Below are positions 16,790 through 29,579 of a DNA stretch of 64,000 nt, in pieces (position 1 is the stretch's first letter; each line of letters opens with the position of its first letter). The position numbers and the translations under genes are program-made. The stretch is from an uncultured Azospirillum sp. (GTDB lineage Bacteria > Pseudomonadota > Alphaproteobacteria > RF32 > CAG-239). The stretch spans positions 95,635 through 159,634 of the forward strand of contig CAMYUM010000001.1 in assembly GCA_947301965.1 (NCBI GenBank). The letters run 5' to 3'. The notes below the pieces were generated by a model. The model did not search any database. It had not been told where the DNA came from and saw only the letters and a list, made by a program, of their open reading frames with translations.

Positions 16790-19700
16790 TTACCACGCGT
16801 AGTTTAAACCAGCACCCAAAGCAATGGCATCATAGCTTGAGCCGAAGGTGTAGTTAGCCCAGGCATAGCCGGACAAAGCATCGGTAAAGCCGTAACGTCC
16901 GCCAATTTCAACTCTGCCTAAAGTTTGGTCGCTGTAAGTAGAGGCTTTGTTCATGCCGGTAATCATTACACTGTCGCCGTTGGTAAAGGTACGGATTACA
17001 CTCGGCTTGATATAAACTTTGGCATTATCAAACTGTTTTTCGAGTTTGGCACCCAATTCTGCTTCCAAATGTTTGATGTCTTCCCATTCATAATGTTTAC
17101 CTACATTGTCATCTGCATCATCAAAGTTAACTTGAGTATAGTATATTCCAACACTAGGATCTAACAGTAAGTCATTAGCGAGAGGAATGGTTCTTCCGAT
17201 TTCAATACTGGCTCCAAATTCTACTCCGTCTGTACTGAATTTAGCTATACCGTCATCAGTCTTAACATCGGCTTGTTGAACTCCTCCATATAAGGTAGCA
17301 AATGCCCAGACTAGATATCTATCATAACGATAATATAATCCGGCTAAATAACTGTCTATTTCAATGCTAGAGCCTATGTTAGAGCGGAACTTGTCGCCTT
17401 TGCCCGAGAGGTCATAATCACCTTTACGATAAGAGGCAAATACACCCAAGGTATTATGAGGATCATTCTGAATATCAAATCCGCCTTCAATACCCCAAAT
17501 CTTGGCTTCCATATCAACAGGTTTTTCAATGTCAGCACTTTCGCCTTGAGCCAATACCCATACATTGTGCAGTTTTTCACCGTTCCAGCCGTAATCATAA
17601 ACACCACAGCCGGGGCAGAGTTCACGTCCGGCGGCAACTTTGTTATTTACGTTGCGGACAACGCTGCGAGTTTGTTCGATAGCGGCTTCGTGTAAGCCAA
17701 TACCGGCTACTACTTCAGGTGCATAAATCTTTTCCGGTTTCGGTTGAGGTTCCGGTTCTGGATCTGGTTCAGGTGGAACATAATCCGGGTTTTCTTCATC
17801 AGTCAAATTCAAGTACCAAGTTGAACCAGCATCTTCACCTTTGGCATTAATGGATCCGTCCCACATATACGGACTACCGATTACACGGGCAACCGCAAAC
17901 CTTGAAGATGTTTCGGTATCATCATACGGCGCAAACAGGAACGGGACAATGGCATCATCTTTGTTGTCCAAAACATCGGGGTTGAGAGAGTTGACCAATA
18001 CTCGATATTCACCCTCAACATCACCATCAACATAAATTTGTCCGGTATTGACTTTATTATTAGCTTTATCAACTTCTACATCTACTGTGATGATCGGGGA
18101 TGATCCAGCTCCTGCGGAGTTAGAAGTCGTCATATTCTGAGTAAAGACTTTAGACTTTAATCCCAGGTGGGTAATAGAGTTTGCACCCAACGTGAAGTTA
18201 GTTACGTTTTCAACCAAATTATTAAATTTGACCACACCTGTGCCGTCACCGGAAATGTTGACGTTATAAATTCGACCATCTATGCCATCGTTGAAAGTTA
18301 TTGTGCCATTGTTAACTGCAGAAAGATTTAAGTTTGCAGGCTGTTCTGGTTCATATGTTTCACAATCTTCACATTCTATTTCGGGTTGTCCTTGCATATA
18401 AATCGCATTATTTTTACCATTTACCTTATTTCCGTCAAACAATGATGCCCCATTGTCGGCAGAAATTAGTATGTCTGTATATTCTGAAAAAATTGCCCCA
18501 CCTTTAGAATCATCGTCGCCTTCAACATAGTTGTTTATAAAGTTGGAATTTATAATGTTGACGGTACCTCGATCAATAAAAATAGCTCCACCATATGCAC
18601 TTGAAGAAGTTGACGATGCATGGTTTTCGATAAAATTACCAACAAGCCTGTCAATTTTAGAATTGTTGTCACTGGTAATAGCTCCACCGTAAGCTCCGGA
18701 ATCACCTTGAGCATAGTTACCTATAAAGTCACCTGTTATGCTGCCAATATCCGCGCCGCCGATGTAGAGGCTTCCGCCATTAGCATAATCTCCCAGGGAA
18801 TAGTTACCTGTAAAATTACCGGTGATATTGTTAATTGCAGAATCGCTGTTACTGACAATAGCACCACCAGAAGCAGAAGCACCAGCAGATATTGTTTGAA
18901 CATAGTTACCAGTAAAATTACCGCTTATATCGCCGATTGAACCGCTATTATAAATAGCACCAGCAGAAGCGTCGATGTTTGTTGATAGTGAGTGATTGCT
19001 GATAAAATCAGAATCGACAATACTATCGATGGAGTTAGCGTTATAAATTGCGCCACCGGAGGCGTAGTTGTTTGTGCTTTCAGCAGTGTTTCCGATAAAT
19101 GTACCGGACAAGGTGCCGATTACCCCGCTAAAGGCATCTGATGCAGAAGCTTGAGAGGTGTTGTTGATGGCGCCACCCCAAACGTAGCTATTTTGAGATT
19201 TAGCACGGTTGCCGATAAAGTTTGCATTTATGTTGTTAATTGTTGCATGGTTATCGATTGCACCACCATGTATAAATTTTCCTGAAGCACCGGTTGAATG
19301 GCCGTAGTTATTAACAAAATTGCCCTCAATAGTATCAATTGTTGCGGCAGCAGATGATGTAGAATCAAAATATATGGCTGGTCCGACGACGCTTCCTGTT
19401 GCAGATGAAGTAGTGTTACCGACAAAATCGCCGGATATTGTTCCCAAAGAAATTGGGGTTCCGCGTAATGACAAACCGGCACCATAAGCGGTTGTAGAAG
19501 ATGTTGCAGATGAGGAGTTATTTACAAAATCAGAGTTTATATCCAAATCGGAAATATTGGTGCCCTTGCTATAAATAGCACCACCGTCAGCAGGGCCGGA
19601 GATATTGGTGAATACTTTGTTGTTTACATCGGCTGTTGCTAAAGTGTTATTAATCCGGGTTGAGGTTTCGGTGTAATCATCAGGTTTGTTATAGGTATAA

Positions 19701-19870
19701 TAAAAAGTTTTTTCCCCGATGGTTACAGCCGTTCCCTCGCTGTCTGACCAAGAGATTTTGTTTCCGGTTAAGCTGTTTAGATAATCCGCATCGACATCAT
19801 CAGCCAATGCCGGTGTGCTTAAAAACGTGGCGGTGAGCAATGATGCCGCGGTAAAATGAAGTTTATTCAT
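16790..19870 (-). CDS. Autotransporter (type Va secretion) with a Pmp-like (GGA[IL]/FxxN) repeat passenger domain
   Basis: It has a signal peptide (ASLLTATFLSTPALA), at least ten repeats of F(I/V/T)GN...GGAI(Y/F/D)N, a PEPDPEPEPQPKP linker and a C-terminal beta-barrel ending in W. Confidence 0.85.
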   Translation of the reverse strand: MNKLHFTAASLLTATFLSTPALADDVDADYLNSLTGNKISWSDSEGTAVTIGEKTFYYTYNKPDDYTETSTRINNTLATADVNNKVFTNISGPADGGAIYSKGTNISDLDINSDFVNNSSSATSSTTAYGAGLSLRGTPISLGTISGDFVGNTTSSATGSVVGPAIYFDSTSSAAATIDTIEGNFVNNYGHSTGASGKFIHGGAIDNHATINNINANFIGNRAKSQNSYVWGGAINNTSQASASDAFSGVIGTLSGTFIGNTAESTNNYASGGAIYNANSIDSIVDSDFISNHSLSTNIDASAGAIYNSGSIGDISGNFTGNYVQTISAGASASGGAIVSNSDSAINNITGNFTGNYSLGDYANGGSLYIGGADIGSITGDFIGNYAQGDSGAYGGAITSDNNSKIDRLVGNFIENHASSTSSSAYGGAIFIDRGTVNIINSNFINNYVEGDDDSKGGAIFSEYTDILISADNGASLFDGNKVNGKNNAIYMQGQPEIECEDCETYEPEQPANLNLSAVNNGTITFNDGIDGRIYNVNISGDGTGVVKFNNLVENVTNFTLGANSITHLGLKSKVFTQNMTTSNSAGAGSSPIITVDVEVDKANNKVNTGQIYVDGDVEGEYRVLVNSLNPDVLDNKDDAIVPFLFAPYDDTETSSRFAVARVIGSPYMWDGSINAKGEDAGSTWYLNLTDEENPDYVPPEPDPEPEPQPKPEKIYAPEVVAGIGLHEAAIEQTRSVVRNVNNKVAAGRELCPGCGVYDYGWNGEKLHNVWVLAQGESADIEKPVDMEAKIWGIEGGFDIQNDPHNTLGVFASYRKGDYDLSGKGDKFRSNIGSSIEIDSYLAGLYYRYDRYLVWAFATLYGGVQQADVKTDDGIAKFSTDGVEFGASIEIGRTIPLANDLLLDPSVGIYYTQVNFDDADDNVGKHYEWEDIKHLEAELGAKLEKQFDNAKVYIKPSVIRTFTNGDSVMITGMNKASTYSDQTLGRVEIGGRYGFTDALSGYAWANYTFGSSYDAIALGAGLNYAW

Positions 19871-21293: not shown

Positions 21294-21656
21294 ATGAAAC
21301 ATAATATTGGTGTTTGTGCTTTGTTTTTGTTGCTTTTTATAGCCGGATGCACAAGCAATGAAACAGTGTGGATGTCGGAAGAAGACTGTGAAAACGAGGC
21401 AAAAGTGGTCGTTCTCGGTAATCGTCCGTATAATACAAAATCAACAATTTTTTTGGTCAATCAAAACACCGGAGAGCTTGCGTGCTGTCAAGACACACCG
21501 ATGGTGAGCGCGGAAGAGTGCGCATGGGCGCTGGAACAAACCTGTTTTAAACGGGTTGAAGATTTGCCCAGAGGAATTGCAAACTATGACTTTTTGAAGC
21601 CGGGAACTTATCCGACCAGACGTTGGCGTGATGGCGAAACTACGCCAAGGTGGTGA
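21294..21656 (+). CDS. Hypothetical small Cys-rich lipoprotein
   Basis: Lipobox FIAGC and six further Cys residues. No family was recognised. Confidence 0.45.
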   Translation: MKHNIGVCALFLLLFIAGCTSNETVWMSEEDCENEAKVVVLGNRPYNTKSTIFLVNQNTGELACCQDTPMVSAEECAWALEQTCFKRVEDLPRGIANYDFLKPGTYPTRRWRDGETTPRW

Positions 21657-21659
21657 TTA

Positions 21660-23183
21660 ATGCTGTCAAGAGTGAAGACTGTTGCCTTTAACGGCTTGGA
21701 AATTCTTGATGTTGAAGTTCAGGTGCAAATTTTATCGGGGATGCCGGCATTTACAATCGTGGGCTTGCCTGACAAAGCGGTGGCCGAAAGCAGAGAACGC
21801 ATTCGCGCCGCTCTTTTTTCTATGGGACTTAAGCTGCCGGCAAAGAGGATTACAATTAATCTAGCTCCGGCAGATATTTTGAAAGAGGGAACCCACTATG
21901 ACCTGCCGCTGGCTTTGGGATTGTTGTGCGGTATGGGTTTGATTAAGCAAGAAAATTTGTCGGGATATGTCGCTGTGGGCGAAATCGGGCTGGATGGTGC
22001 GGTTATTAAGGTTGACGGGGTGCTGCCCGCCGCCATAAGAGCCGAAAAAATCGGTTGCGGCTTTATTTGTCCGGCTGATCAGGGAGGTGAAGCCGCCTGG
22101 TCAGGGGCAAAAAATATTGTACCGATTAAAAATTTGTCAGAACTGGTGGCTTTCTTTAAAGGCGAGGCGGTTATTGCACAGCCGGAGCCAAAAACCGCGG
22201 TTGAAACGACAAGCGAGCTTGATATGCGCGATGTTAAAGGACAGGAAAGCGCAAAACGAGCCATGGAGATTGCCGCTGCCGGCGGGCATAATTTGATTAT
22301 GGTCGGTCCTCCGGGAGCGGGAAAGTCAATGTTGGCGGCGCGATTGCCGACGATTTTACCGCTGATGACAAGAAGCGAGGCAATAGAAACAAGCATGATA
22401 GCCTCAATTGTTGGAGAATTTAAGGGAGACAGTTTGAGTTTTGTGCGGCCGTTTCGTTCTCCGCACCATAGCGCATCAACACCGGCTTTGGTGGGCGGCG
22501 GAAGACCGGCAAGACCGGGAGAAATTTCGCTGGCCAACAACGGAGTGCTGTTTTTGGACGAGTTGCCGGAGTTTGCCCGCTCAACGTTAGAAGCTTTGCG
22601 TCAGCCGTTGGAAAGCGGCAGGATTAATATATCAAGAGTTAATTCTCATGTTGAATTTCCCGCAAAAATTCAGCTTGTTGCGGCAATGAACCCTTGTCGA
22701 TGCGGACATTTGGGTAATCCGGCGCGGGAATGTCCGCGGGCACCAAAGTGTGCACAAGAATATCAGGCAAAAATATCGGGTCCGCTGTTGGACAGGATTG
22801 ATATTCAGATTGAAGTGCCGGCCGTCAGTCCTTGGGATATGTCGGAAGTCGCAAGCGGAGAAAGCAGTGCAGATATTCGCAAACGTGTGGTTGCAGCAAG
22901 AGAGGTGCAACAGCAGAGGTTTGATAAATTCGGACGAGGAGATTTGCACACAAATTCCGAGCTAAGCGGCGATATGCTTGAGGAAGCGGCAATTATGGAC
23001 AATGATGCAAAAGAACTATTGATAAATTATGCGAATCGTGTAAAATTGTCCGCTAGAGGGTATAATCGCACTTTAAAGTTAGCAAGAACAATTGCGGACT
23101 TGCAAAATGAAATTAAATTGCATAAGATACACATAGCCGAGGCTCTGTCCATGAGGTGGAAAGTGCCGGAATACAAGATTTAG
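21660..23183 (+). CDS. comM: Mg-chelatase-like AAA+ ATPase YifB/ComM
   Basis: The 507-aa protein has a Lon-like N-domain, Walker A GPPGAGKS, and the conserved C-terminal NPCRCGHLG Cys motif. Confidence 0.85.
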   Translation: MLSRVKTVAFNGLEILDVEVQVQILSGMPAFTIVGLPDKAVAESRERIRAALFSMGLKLPAKRITINLAPADILKEGTHYDLPLALGLLCGMGLIKQENLSGYVAVGEIGLDGAVIKVDGVLPAAIRAEKIGCGFICPADQGGEAAWSGAKNIVPIKNLSELVAFFKGEAVIAQPEPKTAVETTSELDMRDVKGQESAKRAMEIAAAGGHNLIMVGPPGAGKSMLAARLPTILPLMTRSEAIETSMIASIVGEFKGDSLSFVRPFRSPHHSASTPALVGGGRPARPGEISLANNGVLFLDELPEFARSTLEALRQPLESGRINISRVNSHVEFPAKIQLVAAMNPCRCGHLGNPARECPRAPKCAQEYQAKISGPLLDRIDIQIEVPAVSPWDMSEVASGESSADIRKRVVAAREVQQQRFDKFGRGDLHTNSELSGDMLEEAAIMDNDAKELLINYANRVKLSARGYNRTLKLARTIADLQNEIKLHKIHIAEALSMRWKVPEYKI

Positions 23184-23196
23184 GAGATGACGAACA

Positions 23197-25767
23197 ATGC
23201 TTAAAAAAATATCAAAAACACTGTTGTTGGCAATGGTGGTAAATGGTATGTTTTGGTGCGTAGCCAAAAACGCCGATGCTGCTTGCGCCGCTTGTAATGA
23301 CCGAATTGAAGAACAGGCACCGAGGTTTGTTAAAAACTCCGGCTATAAACCGGAAATTATACAACCGGTAGTCAAAAATTATGACTGCTCGGCCCCAAAG
23401 CCTGAATATGTGCCGGCTCCGGAAATGCCGGTTAAGCAAGAAAAATTTGTTCGTCCGGCTCCGAAGAAGGTTGCATTTATTCCTAATGTAAGCACTTATC
23501 AAAATAAACACTTAAAGCCGCTTGATGATGTTGAAGTTTCTATGAAAAACAGAGTGTCAACATGCACCGAAACGCGCGGCGCTAAACCGACAGGTCCCGA
23601 GTTTGTTATGTCATCTCGCTCGGAAAGACAGGTCGCGTTCGGCGATCAGCCTTGTCGTGACGGAAGCATTTTCGGCGGACACGATTGTCATTCAAGAAAT
23701 AAAAACGGAAGCATCTTCGGCGGAGAGTCTTGCAGAAGTTGCCTGAAGAAAGGAACAATTTTTGAGAGCGCTCCGTGCCAGAGTTGTAAGCAAAAATATG
23801 TATCTCATGCTCAAATACCGGCACCGGTTGCAACCCCTGCTCCTGCTCCGGCTCCGATGCCTGCTCCTTGTTGCTGCTGCAATTGCAACAGTTTTGCTCC
23901 TGTTCCGGCATATGCACCGACAATGACTTATACTACAATTCCCGCTCCGGCTCCGATGCCGGTTCCGATGGCGGCAAATTGCAATTGTGCCGGAAACTAC
24001 GGTGTCGGCGCACAGATTAATGCCCAAGTTGTTGCTCCGCAGGCACCTTGCCCGTGCAAAGGCAAACAACAGGTTCATCAGGAAAAAGTACATGACAGCG
24101 GAGCAATTTTCCCGGGTGGAAGCTGCAAGAGCTGTATGAAGAAAGGCACAATTCTGGAAAGCGGAAGTTGTAAGAGTTGCATGAAAAAAGGTACAATCTT
24201 GGAAAGCGGCAGTTGCACCAGATGCAAAAAGAAAGGATCTTGCACAAAATGTAAACAGCCGAAACCGGAACCGGCTCCAAAGCCGTGCGTAAAGAAACGC
24301 ACCGTTGAGCCGACAATCCGCGATTGTTCATTGTTTGCACCAATCAGCATGGAATGGGTTGACTTCAGAATTAATCGTAACGGCGATAATAAGACCTATT
24401 CACGTAATTTGGGCAAGTATCGTTTCAGAATTTTCGGTTGCCGCAGAAACGCCAAGAATACGGTTTTGAACGAAGGACGCTTGGTAGAGAAAGACATGAA
24501 TTTCAATGAAATCTTTACCGATATGGTTTCGGACTGCTACAAAATTGTTAATATGCAGGAGTGTATTGATGAAAACAGCCCGTTACCGGAATATGTTTTG
24601 ACTGCTGAAATTACCGATTTGTTCCTCGATGTTTGCGATGAATATAATTGGGGCGATGTCAGAATGGAAAACAGCCGTAGCGGTTCTTCAGAAATTACCG
24701 TGGTCTGGAGATTGATGGATATAAGCAAAACCAATGTTTTGTGGAAAGGTCAGACCAAAGGTTACGGAAAACTCGAGGTCGGCGAATATAACGGTGAGAC
24801 CGTTTTGGTTCAGCGTGCGTTTGCCGATGCTTCAAACAATCTGCAATATCAACCGGGATTTGAGGACCAGTTGAAGGTAAGACTTTCACCGGAAGAAGTT
24901 GAACAACAAAGAAGAATTATAATGGAAGCTCAAAAAGCCAGCGGTATCTGCCAGCCTAAAGTTGTTGAAGACTTTGGTGTAGTATCGTCAGGCGTGGTCG
25001 ACGAAGTTAAGGTTGAAACACCGGAACCTGTTGTTTCAAGTGCAATATTTGAGGCCGATAAACTCTGTATTGTTGAAAGAGCAGATATTGATAATATGAC
25101 TACGGAAGATGTCTGCAAAATGAGAAATTCCGTTGTTAAGATTAAAAATGCCAAAGGAGTTGAGGGCGCAGGTCTGTTGATTTCAGAACAATTTGTAATG
25201 ACTTCGGCAGATTTGGTAGACCGCAGCAATAACCAATATACGGTTGAAACAGCAAGCGGCAAGACAATGTCAGCCAAGGCGTTCCGTGCTAACCCACGTC
25301 GCAACACAGCGTTGTTGGTATTGGGAGAGGCTGCAGAATATACTCCGCTGGGACTTAACCTCGAATTGCCGGCCGTAGGTAAAGAAAGCTATCAGTTCGT
25401 AGGGTTGAAACCGGTAGGCAACGGTACCGATTGTATGGCTGACAGCGAGAAAGTTAACAGCTATCGTTATACTCAGGATGGGGCTGCCGAGATTATGATT
25501 GACAGTTTCAATCAAGGCACGGTAATCGGAGGAGTTTTGGTTGATAATAAGGGACGTGTAACCGGTATTGCTCACAGAGCTCCTGATGGCGCACACTTGT
25601 TCTTGCCGATGGAAACCGCAATGCGCAGTTTGGGCGTTGAGATTTGCGGCAAGGCATTCCCAGAAATTAAGCCAAAACCGAAAGTATGGGAAAAACCGGT
25701 TGCCGAGTTTATTGACAATCCGGAAGCCAAAGCCCCAGAGGCTATGCCGGTTAAGAACAGAAAATAA
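23197..25767 (+). CDS. Secreted Cys-rich repeat protein with a C-terminal catalytically inactive trypsin-like (chymotrypsin-fold) domain
   Basis: A signal peptide is followed by about six repeats of G(S/A)IFxGxSC(K/R)SC(M/L)KKGTI(L/F)ESGSC(K/Q)SC, then a Pro/Ala-rich linker with a CCCCNCN cluster. The C-terminal domain aligns with Trypsin_2 (GGVLVDNKGRVTGIAH versus GGPLVNLNGEVIGINT). At the three catalytic positions the protein has D for His, N for Asp and I for Ser. Confidence 0.65.
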   Translation: MLKKISKTLLLAMVVNGMFWCVAKNADAACAACNDRIEEQAPRFVKNSGYKPEIIQPVVKNYDCSAPKPEYVPAPEMPVKQEKFVRPAPKKVAFIPNVSTYQNKHLKPLDDVEVSMKNRVSTCTETRGAKPTGPEFVMSSRSERQVAFGDQPCRDGSIFGGHDCHSRNKNGSIFGGESCRSCLKKGTIFESAPCQSCKQKYVSHAQIPAPVATPAPAPAPMPAPCCCCNCNSFAPVPAYAPTMTYTTIPAPAPMPVPMAANCNCAGNYGVGAQINAQVVAPQAPCPCKGKQQVHQEKVHDSGAIFPGGSCKSCMKKGTILESGSCKSCMKKGTILESGSCTRCKKKGSCTKCKQPKPEPAPKPCVKKRTVEPTIRDCSLFAPISMEWVDFRINRNGDNKTYSRNLGKYRFRIFGCRRNAKNTVLNEGRLVEKDMNFNEIFTDMVSDCYKIVNMQECIDENSPLPEYVLTAEITDLFLDVCDEYNWGDVRMENSRSGSSEITVVWRLMDISKTNVLWKGQTKGYGKLEVGEYNGETVLVQRAFADASNNLQYQPGFEDQLKVRLSPEEVEQQRRIIMEAQKASGICQPKVVEDFGVVSSGVVDEVKVETPEPVVSSAIFEADKLCIVERADIDNMTTEDVCKMRNSVVKIKNAKGVEGAGLLISEQFVMTSADLVDRSNNQYTVETASGKTMSAKAFRANPRRNTALLVLGEAAEYTPLGLNLELPAVGKESYQFVGLKPVGNGTDCMADSEKVNSYRYTQDGAAEIMIDSFNQGTVIGGVLVDNKGRVTGIAHRAPDGAHLFLPMETAMRSLGVEICGKAFPEIKPKPKVWEKPVAEFIDNPEAKAPEAMPVKNRK

Positions 25768-25784
25768 TCGGTAAAAACCAAACA

Positions 25785-25812
25785 AAGCCCCTCCGTACAG
25801 AGGGGCTTTTTT
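25785..25812 (+). terminator. Rho-independent terminator after the Cys-rich gene
   Basis: Hairpin aagcccctccgtacagaggggctt followed by TTTT. Confidence 0.65.
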
Positions 25813-25824
25813 GAAAGAAGACGG

Positions 25825-26445
25825 ATGATAGATAAATTAAAAAAGTATAATGCGTTTTATGCAAACAATGGCTCTTGCGGGAACGAAAAGTATTATGAGG
25901 TGTTTAAGTATGCGGATCGAAAATCAAAACTTATTTTGTCTGCTCCGCATGCGACAAAGAGCTTTGTTAGCAAAAAAGAAAAGCCTGCAGATTTATACAC
26001 AGGCGCAATAGTTGAATATGTTGGCGAACAAACAGAGACATCTACACTTATTAGGACTAAATATGTAAATAAAAAGGAGCTGATTTCAGACTATGTAGCA
26101 AACAACGGGCTAGAAAATCATTTTTTTGTTGATGTACATGGATTTGATAAAAATATAGAATATGATGTGTGTTTAGGGATATGTGAATATGAGACTAAAG
26201 GGTATCCATATTTGGAAGATATAATTGCTATCGTGCAGAAATATAACTTAAAGACAATAGTTAATTATCCCGGTTATACGGGGAAGAGCGGATTTACAAG
26301 ACGTTATCAAGAACAATTTGGTAAGCCCAATATAATACAAATGGAATTGAAGAGATATTTGCGCGATTTTTACCATAATCCCGATATTGTCAAAAAAATA
26401 ACAATACCGATGATGATAGAGGTAGCTAATTGCTATAAAAAATAA
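25825..26445 (+). CDS. N-formylglutamate amidohydrolase (FGase) family protein
   Basis: LSAPHAT, DVHGFD and the overall size fit PF05013-type proteins. The gene is markedly more AT-rich than its neighbours. Confidence 0.5.
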   Translation: MIDKLKKYNAFYANNGSCGNEKYYEVFKYADRKSKLILSAPHATKSFVSKKEKPADLYTGAIVEYVGEQTETSTLIRTKYVNKKELISDYVANNGLENHFFVDVHGFDKNIEYDVCLGICEYETKGYPYLEDIIAIVQKYNLKTIVNYPGYTGKSGFTRRYQEQFGKPNIIQMELKRYLRDFYHNPDIVKKITIPMMIEVANCYKK

Positions 26446-26488: not shown

Positions 26489-26830
26489 TTATTTTTGCTT
26501 ATCTTTTTTTTGTTGAAGGAGCCTAGCTTGGAAGCCCTTAGGTTTCCATCCGTACATAGATTCACCGTCTTTTGCTATTTTTACAGCTTGCTCCCATTCT
26601 AAATCTGCTTTCTGTGTCATATGATGAGCTTTTTGCGCGTCATAAGGGGTATCTGTGCCATGAGCGATGGAGTTGTTGTTGTAATCGTACTTAATTTTAT
26701 TAATTTCTGAATTATCCTTATTGTACTCGCCAAAGGAAGATTTTAAACCTTCTTTGCTCATGTGTTGAAAGCTTTCTGATTTGCACACGGCCTCAAGTTT
26801 TTTTAAGGCAGCTTCTTTTGACTCTTTCAT
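26489..26830 (-). CDS. Hypothetical protein (AT-rich islet)
   Basis: A 113-aa hydrophilic protein with no recognisable family. It shares the low GC content of the adjacent FGase-like gene. Confidence 0.4.
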   Translation of the reverse strand: MKESKEAALKKLEAVCKSESFQHMSKEGLKSSFGEYNKDNSEINKIKYDYNNNSIAHGTDTPYDAQKAHHMTQKADLEWEQAVKIAKDGESMYGWKPKGFQARLLQQKKDKQK

Positions 26831-26994: not shown

Positions 26995-28578
26995 ATGTCA
27001 TTATTAAAATCAGTAACAACTTTTGGCGGATGGACGCTAATCAGTAGGATTACAGGATTTTTCCGCGATGTGGTGTTGGCTAATTATTTGGGCGCGGGAC
27101 TGGTTTCCGATGCGTTTTTTGTGTCGTTTAAGCTGCCGAATCTGTTCAGAAGTTTGTTTGCGGAAGGAGCTTTCAGCGCGGCGTTTGTGCCGATTTTTTC
27201 TCAAAAACTGGTCAAGGACAATAAGAGCCAGGCGATAAAGTTTGCGGCTCAAGCAATCTCAGTATTGGCGGCATTTGTCGGGCTTTTTGTGCTGATTATG
27301 GAAGTGATTATGCCGGCGGTGGTAATGGTTTTGGCTCCGGGGTTTGCCAGCGATGCCGGAAAAATCGAATTGGCAGTTTTTTTGTCTAGAATCACATTTC
27401 CGTTTTTGCTGTTGGTGTCAATTGTGTCTTTTCAGTCGGGAATCTTGAATTCTCTGGGAAAATTTGCGGCACCGGCAGCGGCACCGGTTATTTTGAACCT
27501 GACGATGATTACGTCGGTTTTTGTTTTTATGCCGTTTTTGGCTACACCGGCTTATAGAATTGCTTTGGGTATTCCGATTGCGGGGGTTTTAGAAGTTTTA
27601 TGGCTTAATTATTTTTTGCGGAAAGAGGGCGTTTTTGTTACTCCGCAAAAAGATATCTTTAATTTGGTAAAATCCGATGAAATAAAAATGTTGTTTAAAC
27701 GGATAGCGCCCGGGGTGTTCGGAGCCGGAATTTATCAAATTAATATGATGGTTGATACAATTTTGGTTTCTTTGGTCGGTACCGGCGCAATTTCGTGGTT
27801 ATATTATGCCAACAGGTTGCAACAACTGCCTTTGGGCGTGGTCGGAGCAGCAATCGGGGTGGCGGTTTTGCCAATATTATCAAAACAGGTGAAGTCAGAA
27901 GATACGGTGGCGGCAAAGCGTACTCAAGACAAAGCAATAGAGTATGGGGCTTTGATGTCAATGCCGGCGGCGGTGGCTTTGATGGTGTTGGCGGCACCGA
28001 CGGTTAATGTGTTGTTTCAGCACGGAAAATTCGGCGGCTTGCAAACCCTTATGACCTCAAAAGCGGTGATTGCGTATGCGTTGGGGTTGCCCTTATATGT
28101 GATGGTAAAAGCGCTGGCTCCCAACTTTTTTGCGCGCGGGGACACAAAAACTCCGGTAAAATACAGCGCAATAGTGCTGTTGGCAAATTTGGTGTTTTCG
28201 GCATTACTGATGATTCCGTTCGGGCATGTCGGAATAGCGTCTGCAACAACATTTGCTGCGTTTGTGTCGTTGTTTCAATATGTACGGGGGCTGAAAAAAA
28301 GAGGCTATTGGAGTTTTTCTAAAGAACTGAAAGAACGTATGGCAAAAATATGCGCCTGTTCCGTAGCGATGGGTGTGGTGCTGTATGCGGAAAGAAGTCT
28401 TTTAAATATATGGAATCCAAATTGGTTGGGTTTGCCGGTGATAGCAAAACTGTTATTGCTGGGAATGATTGGCGGCGTTGCGGCGTTGGCATTTTTGATG
28501 ATGATAAAAATGTGTGGCATTGTCGATGTGTTTGCTTTTTGTAAAAATATGATCAGTCGCAGGAGAAGACGTAAGTGA
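26995..28578 (+). CDS. murJ: Lipid II flippase MurJ
   Basis: MSLLKSVTTFGGWTLISRITGFFRDVVLANYLGAG matches the MurJ N-terminus, and the protein has 14 predicted TM segments. The first ATG with MurJ-like sequence was taken as start. Confidence 0.85.
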   Translation: MSLLKSVTTFGGWTLISRITGFFRDVVLANYLGAGLVSDAFFVSFKLPNLFRSLFAEGAFSAAFVPIFSQKLVKDNKSQAIKFAAQAISVLAAFVGLFVLIMEVIMPAVVMVLAPGFASDAGKIELAVFLSRITFPFLLLVSIVSFQSGILNSLGKFAAPAAAPVILNLTMITSVFVFMPFLATPAYRIALGIPIAGVLEVLWLNYFLRKEGVFVTPQKDIFNLVKSDEIKMLFKRIAPGVFGAGIYQINMMVDTILVSLVGTGAISWLYYANRLQQLPLGVVGAAIGVAVLPILSKQVKSEDTVAAKRTQDKAIEYGALMSMPAAVALMVLAAPTVNVLFQHGKFGGLQTLMTSKAVIAYALGLPLYVMVKALAPNFFARGDTKTPVKYSAIVLLANLVFSALLMIPFGHVGIASATTFAAFVSLFQYVRGLKKRGYWSFSKELKERMAKICACSVAMGVVLYAERSLLNIWNPNWLGLPVIAKLLLLGMIGGVAALAFLMMIKMCGIVDVFAFCKNMISRRRRRK

Positions 28579-29579
28579 AAGTGTATGCGCGTAAAGCCGT
28601 TGAAACAGCTAAAAAAACATGCGGCAGGGTCGGAGAACTGATTAAAGGGGCTTTTGACACATGGCCAAAGGCCTTTGTCGGCGTGATTGCAGCGTTGATA
28701 ATCGGCTATTATCCCCTGGGCGGAAAGATGAGCGAAAGCATAGACAAGACAGCGGATTATGATTTTTCGGCAATATCGGAAAAACAACTGCAAACTGTGG
28801 AGGCGATTTCGTTTTTGATTGACCGAGAGGTTAACAAGCATATTTGGACCCCTAATCTGCCTTTCTTTTTTCCGGCTTACAGCCTTGATAATATGCCAAA
28901 TTTTCAAATCGGGATAATTCGCGGTGTAAAAAGTATTGCGTCGAGCTTGGCAAAGCAGGTCAAGTGTGTTGAGGACGAAAAAGCGCCGAAATATTTGCCG
29001 GATGCAGCAAATTTGTTGGCTTATCCCGAAAATGTATGGCTGGTTTCTCCGAATAATAAGCTAAAAATGGCGGCATCATCATCCAGCCAATATCGTAAGG
29101 CTCGGAAAAAAATGAAAAATTTTAACCAAGCGCTTGAAAGCGAAAAATGTTTTTGGGTCAGAGACGAAAAAAGTCTGTATGCAATAAATTTGTCTGTTCT
29201 CAGAGGACTTAGGGCGGCAAAACGTCAGCTGGAAAATGAGATAAAAGAGGGAAACAGCAGCTGGTTTGATACTAAGGCTGATAATGTGTTTTATCTAAAT
29301 CAGGGAAGGCTGTACGCATATATGATAGTCTTGAAAAAAATAGCCAGAGATTATAAACAGGTGTTGATGGCAGATAATCTGTATCAGGACTGGACGATTA
29401 TGTTGAGGGCTTTGCAAGATGCCGTGGAAATAAATCCAGAAGTTGTGTTGAACGGAAAGATTAACGGAGAATTTACGGCAAATCATTTAATGAGTTTGGG
29501 GTATTATACGGCAAAGGCTGAAAATGTTTTGATAAAAATCAATGTGCGTTTGAAAGAGGAAGACAAAGATGCAAATTGA
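28575..29579 (+). CDS. Hypothetical protein (DUF2333-like) with an N-terminal TM anchor
   Basis: GTG start overlapping the murJ stop. Conserved protein of unknown function. Confidence 0.5.
   Translation: MKVYARKAVETAKKTCGRVGELIKGAFDTWPKAFVGVIAALIIGYYPLGGKMSESIDKTADYDFSAISEKQLQTVEAISFLIDREVNKHIWTPNLPFFFPAYSLDNMPNFQIGIIRGVKSIASSLAKQVKCVEDEKAPKYLPDAANLLAYPENVWLVSPNNKLKMAASSSSQYRKARKKMKNFNQALESEKCFWVRDEKSLYAINLSVLRGLRAAKRQLENEIKEGNSSWFDTKADNVFYLNQGRLYAYMIVLKKIARDYKQVLMADNLYQDWTIMLRALQDAVEINPEVVLNGKINGEFTANHLMSLGYYTAKAENVLIKINVRLKEEDKDAN

Follow-up and report, generated by a model that had tools for sequence, protein, structure and literature searches.

A predicted non-catalytic S1C protease-fold protein with a probable LptE/CsgG-like domain, encoded beside comM in an uncultured alphaproteobacterium

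The protein encoded at 23197..25767

We analysed a stretch of 64,000 nucleotides (nt) from an uncultured rumen Azospirillum sp. of the Alphaproteobacteria (assembly GCA_947301965.1, contig CAMYUM010000001.1, forward-strand positions 95,635 to 159,634), referred to here as the window, and in particular the open reading frame (ORF) at 23197..25767 on its plus strand, which runs uninterrupted for 856 amino acids (aa). This ORF is intact in hundreds of assemblies, and a protein from public metagenome assemblies (P0001) is 99.65% identical to its product. The gene closes a tightly spaced set of three on the same strand, the other two encoding ComM and a 120-aa lipoprotein. With high confidence, we describe the product as an exported protein that is non-catalytic, under strong conservation and derived from a PDZ-less S1C lipoprotein protease with an LptE-like domain. 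Its parts, in order, are as follows.

23197..23280, plus strand: Sec-type signal peptide (residues 1-28), with cleavage at ADA/A predicted by the -3/-1 rule and no lipobox
23281..23661, plus strand: variable N-terminal region (residues 29-155), mean identity 0.33
23662..23796, plus strand: Cys-repeat block 1 (residues 156-200), three 15-aa units, GSIFGGHDCHSRNKN / GSIFGGESCRSCLKK / GTIFESAPCQSCKQK
23797..24099, plus strand: Pro/Ala-rich insert (residues 201-301, about 100 aa) with CCCCNCN, CNC and CPC motifs
24100..24264, plus strand: Cys-repeat block 2 (residues 302-356), GAIFPGGSCKSCMKK / GTILESGSCKSCMKK / GTILESGSCTRCKKK / GSCTKCKQPK
24319..24954, plus strand: middle domain (residues ~375-586), probable LptE/CsgG/PelC-like alpha/beta fold
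24955..25053, plus strand: acidic linker (residues 587-619) with the motif VVEDxGxVSxG
25054..25641, plus strand: predicted catalytically dead S1C (HtrA/MarP-like) chymotrypsin-fold domain (residues 620-815)
25642..25767, plus strand: conserved C-terminal tail and stop codon (residues 816-856), ...ICGKAFPE...KPVAEFIDNPEAKAPEAMPVKNRK

A first-pass annotation of the window had proposed that the protein ends in a trypsin-like domain, and both profile and structure comparisons bear this out. Pfam PF13365 (Trypsin_2) matches residues 657-791 over profile positions 1-144 of 144, with a score of 37.6 bits against a gathering threshold of 27.6 bits. An AlphaFold2 (AF2) model of residues 367-856 has predicted local distance difference test (pLDDT) values of 75-88 across the protease domain, and its Foldseek matches are DegS, DegP, DegQ, Rv0983 and MarP (Rv3671c), with a probability of 1.00, E-values of ~1e-9 and template modelling scores, TM(target), of 0.6-0.68.

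The residues at the positions of the catalytic His, Asp and Ser are D672 (nt 25210-25212, within TSADLV), N703 (nt 25303-25305, within NTALLVL) and I777 (nt 25525-25527, within GTVIGG), the same three that had been named in the first-pass annotation, and three alignments agree on this assignment. A phmmer alignment with MarP pairs VMTNAHVV with VMTSADLV and DVAILAV with NTALLVL; a BLASTP alignment with P0175, a catalytically intact homologue (E 7e-28), pairs VLTNAHVV with VMTSADLV, PRDVALI with RRNTALL and GGNSGGPL with QGTVIGGVL; and a hidden Markov model alignment of 135 representative relatives places H-D-S in 80 of them and D-N-(I/V/L/...) in the closer relatives of the window protein. Whether homologues retain the triad had been raised as a point to check: it is kept in those 80 aligned relatives and lost in all of the 120 closest homologues, among which D-N-I occurs in 103. 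Across the dead family, the nucleophile position varies among I, V, L, T, A and G, and no Ser, Thr or Cys is conserved, while G778 of the oxyanion hole is invariant, G779 is mostly Gly and the core strands are kept. We thus read D672, N703 and I777 as replacements of His, Asp and Ser, and the domain, as judged from its sequence, as non-catalytic. As the loss of the triad is fixed and under selection across the dead family, a non-enzymatic role is a reasonable reading, in keeping with what had been suggested before.

The regions on either side of this domain are also distinctive. All members of the D-N type have gained, relative to their active relatives, an invariant Cys before the protease domain (C624), another after it (C817) and a tail of ~40 aa, and the two Cys are a disulfide-capable pair. 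The tail has a mean identity of 0.78, the highest of any region, and more than 30 representative clusters end in motifs resembling KAPExMxxKxRK. It shows no hydrophobic segment past 'APE', which rules out a PEP-CTERM-type sorting signal, and no PDZ domain was matched in the window protein by Pfam at E<=1, the protein ending in this 41-aa tail. In the acidic linker, E591, G594 and S597 are invariant in the family alignment (A1); the VVEDxGxVSxG motif occurs once in the window protein and in long repeat arrays in many homologues, one of which (P0014) matches the DUF1174 repeat.

The first-pass annotation had mentioned neither this tail nor the middle domain, which is among the best-conserved regions of the family (mean identity 0.68, with six invariant Cys). 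The AF2 model of the middle domain (pLDDT 68) has a beta-alpha-beta3-alpha core, and the PDB matches found by Foldseek at E<1e-3, 29 in number, all belong to a single fold group, which includes CsgG (E 4e-5, TM ~0.4), LptE, Caulobacter CC_3750, FlgT, PelC, DUF330/PqiC-like proteins, HpaA and Cj1090c. An LptE/CsgG/PelC-like fold is therefore probable on the basis of the model, in which TM-scores are low and two conserved loops are missing. Pfam and NCBIfam scans of the domain returned no family, and in particular no Pfam CsgG, LptE or PelC. One conserved loop, at residues 391-432, is basic (isoelectric point, pI, 11.3; 12 Lys plus Arg). Given that the loops are strongly charged, they are not transmembrane hairpins of the CsgG type, and with no lipobox and no Pfam match either, a CsgG-like pore is ruled out.

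With regard to the N-terminal part, the claim of a signal peptide was supported: residues 5-23 are the sole hydrophobic stretch of the protein and are followed by A-D-A/A, and a search for the lipobox pattern found none, so that a signal peptide of the Sec/signal peptidase I type is indicated. In the variable region that follows, alignment A1 shows only short conserved motifs, namely a CxxC at the mature N-terminus, VKNYDCS and EFVMSSRSERQ. The first 366 aa gave no match in a Pfam scan, and a profile built from the full-length family alignment had no PDB match at E<=0.01.

The protein contains 39 Cys, 28 of them before residue 365. The tandem repeats noted in the first-pass annotation are real: six 15-aa units exist, beginning at G156, G171, G186, G302, G317 and G332, with a truncated seventh at 347, but each carries one CxxC (two Cys; a single Cys in the first unit) and not the two Cys pairs per unit originally described. 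Moreover, the Pro/Ala-rich segment does not follow the array, as had been thought, but splits it into two blocks of three units. The CCCCNCN cluster reported within it is present at residues 225-231, with its coordinates corrected from 23868-23885 to nt 23869-23889 (TGT TGC TGC TGC AAT TGC AAC, a short TGY/AAY triplet run). At the DNA level, Tandem Repeats Finder detects block 2 with a 45-nt period (2.2-2.6 copies, 78-81% matches, score 137), and this block is a recent tandem duplication; 6-nt and 12-nt micro-repeats are found in the insert.

The spacing of the repeats is C-x2-C-x11-C-x2-C, with the motif CKxCxKxG. Paired CxxC motifs with a compatible spacing occur in zinc ribbons and in the Cys-rich domain of DnaJ, although the motif of the latter (consensus CxxCxGxG) differs. 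Searches for the repeat, which had been recommended in the first-pass annotation, found no match in Pfam, NCBIfam or the PDB, and a PDB search with the Cys-repeat consensus gave chance matches only (PTX3, E 0.3). The CxxC motifs read CAACN, CRSCL, CQSCK, CKSCM (twice), CTRCK and CTKCK; His follows none of them, and with no CxxCH motif, haem binding of the c-type cytochrome or magnetochrome kind is ruled out.

Origin of the family and selection

An exhaustive phmmer search with residues 367-856 against 1.84 billion representative proteins yielded 371 relatives. Those with E-values below about 1e-30 are proteins of 500-1200 aa with the same dead signature, whereas the next tier is a large set of proteins of ~430-480 aa, 25-31% identical, in which both domains are matched in order and which combine a lipoprotein signal peptide, an LptE-like domain and an intact triad (TNxHVV, RDVAL, GNSGGP). 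These active relatives score ~100 bits on Trypsin_2 and fall below the cutoff of every named HtrA/MarP model; they are encoded by cultured Rhodospirillales (Limimonas, Shumkonia, Ferrovibrio, Dongia, Telmatospirillum and Haematospirillum), and the annotation of these proteins goes no further than 'S1C family serine protease' or 'trypsin-like peptidase domain-containing protein'. The core of the window protein is linked to them by phmmer E-values of 1e-12 to 1e-26, with two matched stretches per match; the BLASTP alignment with P0175 (E 7e-28) extends over both domains, and tblastn gives E-values of 1e-18 to 1e-26. Degenerate intermediates also exist, with G-N-L, S-D-L, K-D-L and R-G-L triads, and several of them are still lipoproteins. 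The window protein itself has no lipobox and has lost the triad, and it is therefore, by sequence comparison, part of a divergent dead subfamily, an offshoot of this uncharacterised family of two-domain lipoprotein proteases rather than an orthologue of its active members.

Some relatives depart from this scheme. P0229, of 619 aa, has two tandem LptE-like domains and a triad that has degenerated independently to R / D / L, from which it follows that catalysis was lost more than once in the family. The active relatives P0193 and P0265 have long C-terminal extensions, and that of P0193 matches CsgH (NF041112) weakly and below threshold (E 1.5e-3); CsgH is an alphaproteobacterial curli chaperone, which makes the match curious beside the CsgG-like fold of the N-terminal domain.

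Within the dead family, the clade of the window protein consists of metagenome-assembled genomes from rumen and human gut labelled Alphaproteobacteria or uncultured Rhodospirillales, the closest being RUG10691, with 97% identity over the 490-residue core (residues 367-856). The GSIFGGxxCxxC array is essentially confined to this rumen/gut subclade, in which GSIFGG..C is nearly invariant (alignment A1) and the copy number ranges from 2 to 7 units; for example, P0002, which is 88% identical to the window protein, has one extra unit. The insert bearing CCCCNCN is confined to the nearest relatives (alignment A1). All but one of the other dead-family representatives have a single Cys-repeat unit or none, and several of these are lipoproteins. 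The array is thus a fast-evolving, lineage-specific addition with a variable copy number, and the combination of CxxC array and pseudo-protease, which had been taken as the defining arrangement, does not characterise the family. The conserved unit is instead the LptE/CsgG-like domain, the dead S1C domain and the conserved tail.

Selection was estimated as the ratio of nonsynonymous to synonymous substitution rates (dN/dS; Nei-Gojobori method) against the orthologues in loci L004-L006, with the following results.

Dead protease domain: 0.02-0.04
Middle domain: 0.02-0.07
C-terminal tail: 0.03-0.06
N-terminal arm: 0.08-0.25, rising to 0.33 in the comparison with L008, a more distant locus for which dS approaches saturation

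By this measure, the dead domain is under strong purifying selection and appears as constrained as a working enzyme, and these values, together with the intact ORF, rule out a decaying pseudogene.

Several known systems offer points of comparison. The closest is the active two-domain family of the Rhodospirillales (for example P0175 and P0170, and named entries from Limimonas halophila and Shumkonia mesophila, among others), which is homologous over both domains in the same order and has the ancestral Cys pair (equivalents of C415 and C480) in common with the window protein. Its members, in contrast, end right after the protease domain and have no Cys-repeat arm, acidic linker, C624/C817 pair or tail, and at the P0170 locus the gene is not beside comM. 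No experimental study of this active family was found in the sources consulted. In terms of structure, the best matches of the domain are HtrA, DegP, DegS and DegQ (MEROPS S1C) and MarP, which have a chymotrypsin fold and a periplasmic setting, and MarP (Rv3671c, PDB 3lt3) is also the best PDB match by sequence. However, HtrA has PDZ domains, MarP has N-terminal transmembrane helices and both have a catalytic triad, none of which is present in the window protein, and the NCBIfam HtrA/MarP scores are far below their cutoffs (for MarP NF033740, 20.3 bits against an equivalog cutoff of 250).

Dead HtrA-type domains with new roles are already known. MamO of Magnetospirillum is, like the window protein, an alphaproteobacterial protein with an HtrA-derived domain that has lost catalysis and has a non-catalytic role. 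In MamO, His and Asp are kept and the nucleophile position is occupied by Thr, metal is bound by a di-His motif on the surface, and the protein is fused to a TauE transporter domain and encoded in the magnetosome island; it promotes proteolysis by MamE through this C-terminal transporter domain and not through the dead protease domain (PMC4794232). The window protein scores 9.4 bits on MamO NF040961, against a cutoff of 800, has no TauE match and is encoded among genes for ribosomal proteins, ComM and MurJ. A link to metal could be drawn only by analogy. In RsgI9 of Clostridium thermocellum (PDB 7sjy), the S1C-like domain is an extracytoplasmic cellulose-binding sensor module (PMC12203970). 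This domain resembles that of the window protein (Foldseek E 1.3e-8), with no sequence relationship beyond the fold, and RsgI9 differs in being an anti-sigma factor of Firmicutes, fused to an NTF2 domain, that binds polysaccharide. Finally, the middle domain has, in its AF2 model, the same beta-alpha-beta3-alpha arrangement as the outer-membrane lipoprotein fold of LptE, PelC, CsgG, PqiC (DUF330) and the N-terminal domain of FlgT; those proteins are lipid-anchored, as is the domain in the wider family, whereas the window protein has no lipid anchor.

Gene neighbourhood

The gene is accompanied by the following features.

21294..21656, plus strand: small Cys-containing lipoprotein of 120 aa, with the lipobox FIAG/C and five further Cys
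21660..23183, plus strand: ComM/YifB Mg-chelatase-like AAA+ ATPase, cytoplasmic (Pfam Mg_chelatase/ChlI/Mg_chelatase_C; TIGR00368, 551 bits)
25784..25809, no strand assigned: GC-rich 11-bp palindromic hairpin, 17 nt past the stop codon of the pseudo-protease gene, stem AAAGCCCCTC..GAGGGGCTTT

The three genes are separated by gaps of 3 and 13 nt and are divergent from rpsF-rpsR-rplI. The score that the hairpin received in a scan is for the minus strand; apart from the loop, its stem is a palindrome, so that it can form on either strand, and it is probably a bidirectional terminator that closes the three-gene unit and separates it from the next ORF, of 206 aa. The order small protein, ComM, pseudo-protease is found in ten of ten related loci and in two distant members of the dead family (40-48% identity), the small protein lying directly upstream of ComM in L001-L010, L013 and L014. 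Adjacency to ComM holds at every D-N-type locus examined and is loosened in L015, and the degenerate P0152 lineage lacks the small protein but retains ComM in the vicinity. Downstream of the pseudo-protease, the genes are not conserved across the loci examined, and the neighbourhood of the active relative P0170 shares no context with the dead-family loci. The 120-aa lipoprotein matches no family in Pfam, NCBIfam or PADLOC, while its C-terminus (YDFL..TYPTRRWR..E..PRW) is conserved in every D-N-type locus examined, and it may be a partner of the pseudo-protease.

An AAA+ ATPase gene next to a protease-like gene might bring a defence system to mind, but the locus is core genome beside rpsF-rpsR-rplI, and PADLOC shows only weak, generic similarity of the trypsin domain (RT-Protease_XI, E 4e-6, and Avs1b). 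As for other genes in the region, the 206-aa ORF (25825-26445, plus strand) and a 113-aa ORF (26489-26830, minus strand) have no Pfam or NCBIfam match; the conservation of the former, which also has no PADLOC match, is limited to the closest relatives (L004-L006). Upstream of the ribosomal protein genes lies a 1026-aa autotransporter (16790-19870, minus strand; Pfam Autotransporter beta-domain, E 2.6e-26), and a gene for a DUF2333 protein (28575-29579, plus strand) overlaps the preceding murJ by 4 nt and is followed by a gene for a NifU/Nfu-like protein (Pfam).

Possible functions and their significance

Taken as a whole, the explanation that we favour is that the protein is a Sec-exported, soluble, periplasmic and catalytically dead descendant of the Rhodospirillales lipoprotein proteases, which acts as a non-enzymatic envelope protein, and we would give this account an even chance of being right. 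The ancestor would have been a lipoprotein in which an LptE/CsgG-like domain at the N-terminus preceded an S1C (HtrA/MarP-like) protease domain with no PDZ domain. Along the dead lineage, His would have changed to Asp, Asp to Asn and Ser to a hydrophobic residue, and the C624/C817 pair and the tail of ~40 aa would have been gained; in the rumen/gut subclade, the lipid anchor would then have been replaced by a long, fast-evolving arm, rich in Cys, Pro, Gly and Lys, with GSIFGGxxCxxC repeats. The intact protease fold could have been retained as a non-hydrolysing module for binding peptides or other ligands, as the preservation of the fold, the oxyanion-hole glycines and the core strands suggests that the cleft was kept as a binding site. 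The LptE-like domain could dock onto a conserved partner in the envelope, in the manner of LptE, PelC, PqiC and CsgG. The usual role of this fold is to dock lipoproteins onto machines of the outer membrane or to form rings. Reach across the periplasm might come from the flexible repeat arm and the acidic linker, whose low complexity resembles that of the reach-through linkers of envelope lipoproteins. The protein would thus act as a periplasmic adaptor, holdase or scaffold and not as an enzyme, a tentative assignment that is somewhat more likely to be wrong than right. The data do not discriminate between the roles put forward in the first-pass annotation, namely adhesin, metal sequestration and protease decoy.

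A number of observations weigh against this explanation. We infer the periplasmic location, the binding function and the partner. Confidence in the AF2 models is medium (mean pLDDT 62 and 68), they leave the linker, the tail and the conserved basic loop unmodelled, and the TM-scores of the middle domain are only 0.3-0.5. ComM is cytoplasmic and gives no functional clue, and the synteny may reflect inheritance rather than function; hslVU is also near the gene in two distant loci (L013 and L015), which fits a general conservation of the region. D672 and N703 are nearly invariant, which suggests that the old active site has taken on a specific new function, for instance the coordination of an ion or ligand, and a generic holdase model fails to explain this. 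In a bolder proposal, the dead family might be an unrecognised, essential-like envelope component of Alphaproteobacteria that live in association with hosts, a scaffold spanning the periplasm in which D672, N703 and the KAPExMxxKxRK tail would bind a new ligand, the LptE-like domain would dock on an outer-membrane machine, and, in the gut/rumen subclade, the CxxC arm would give redox- or metal-dependent anchoring, possibly to the co-encoded lipoprotein. We regard this as a long shot, but if it were true, the protein would represent a new functional class of pseudo-protease and not just another inactive paralogue.

Among the alternatives, the one that survives best, though we consider it unlikely, is that the protein handles metals, with the CxxC repeats and the CC/CxC-rich Pro/Ala insert binding Zn, Cu or Fe in the periplasm of an anaerobe and the dead domain serving as a MamO-like scaffold for metal binding or delivery. 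The number of Cys and their concentration in the N-terminal part, the regular 15-aa period of the CxxC units and the near-invariance of GSIFGG..C in the subclade are all consistent with this, MamO sets a precedent for a dead HtrA domain that binds transition metals in Alphaproteobacteria, and D672 and N703, as conserved replacements, could coordinate an ion. Nevertheless, since the array is missing from most other dead-family representatives, metal binding by it is not the core function, and its copy number differs even between orthologues that are 88% identical, the arm being the region under the weakest constraint. Furthermore, the invariant Cys pairs of the folded domains imply an oxidising periplasm in which CxxC motifs are prone to form disulfides, the repeat has neither a CxxCH motif nor a database match, and the MamO score is very far from its cutoff.

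Somewhat less probable still is that the protein regulates a protease, in which case the dead S1C domain would hetero-oligomerise with, or dock on, an active HtrA-type enzyme in order to activate, inhibit or target it. The protease domains of the HtrA family are known to oligomerise, the Rhodospirillales have an active sister family built on the same two-domain core, and MamO is required for MamE-dependent proteolysis, though, as mentioned above, its dead domain is not the part responsible. The 64-kb window, however, contains no active paralogue, the active relative examined (P0170) lies in an unrelated neighbourhood, and the tail and Cys pair specific to the dead family point to a new interaction rather than to mimicry.

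The position of the gene 13 nt downstream of comM, conserved as described above, raises the question of whether it encodes a periplasmic competence factor co-transcribed with ComM, for example a DNA receptor that uses Lys-rich CxxC knuckles. The repeat blocks and the tail are basic (pI 8.9-9.6), as is the middle-domain loop, which would fit such a role, but the pI of whole proteins in the family ranges from 4.5 to 8.4, with no consistent positive charge, which rules out DNA binding by bulk charge. Given also that the repeats are absent from most representatives of the dead family beyond the rumen/gut subclade, that YifB/ComM is widespread in non-competent bacteria, and that Pfam and NCBIfam show no similarity to ComEA or other DNA receptors, we find this very improbable. 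Lastly, although the fold, oxyanion-hole glycines and core strands are retained, a hydrolase with a non-canonical catalytic set and a decaying pseudogene are both effectively excluded, the former by a nucleophile position with no conserved Ser, Thr or Cys and the latter by the low dN/dS of the dead domain and the hundreds of intact copies.

Given the precedents of MamO (PMC4794232) and RsgI9 (PDB 7sjy; PMC12203970), what is new here is not the loss of catalysis as such but the architecture of LptE-like domain, dead S1C domain and conserved tail, with an optional Cys-repeat arm, for which, as for an LptE-like plus trypsin-like lipoprotein, a literature search found no paper. Other new elements are the D/N replacement, which is fixed, and how widespread and abundant the family is among the Alphaproteobacteria of gut and rumen. 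The gene is single-copy and syntenic and turns up very often in metagenomes of human gut and rumen, with one orthologue indexed in 445 blocks of the assembly collection. The middle domain represents a family of probable LptE/CsgG-like domains that has no annotation and is missed by current databases; Pfam and NCBIfam detect only 'Trypsin_2', and the label 'serine protease' given to such genes in genomes is wrong for the dead clade. Pseudo-enzymes under strong selection flag functions that are not yet understood, and in this family there is an evolutionary series that leads from an active lipoprotein protease through a dead lipoprotein to a dead soluble protein with a Cys-repeat arm. This series makes the family a tractable case for the study of how HtrA-type proteases are repurposed.

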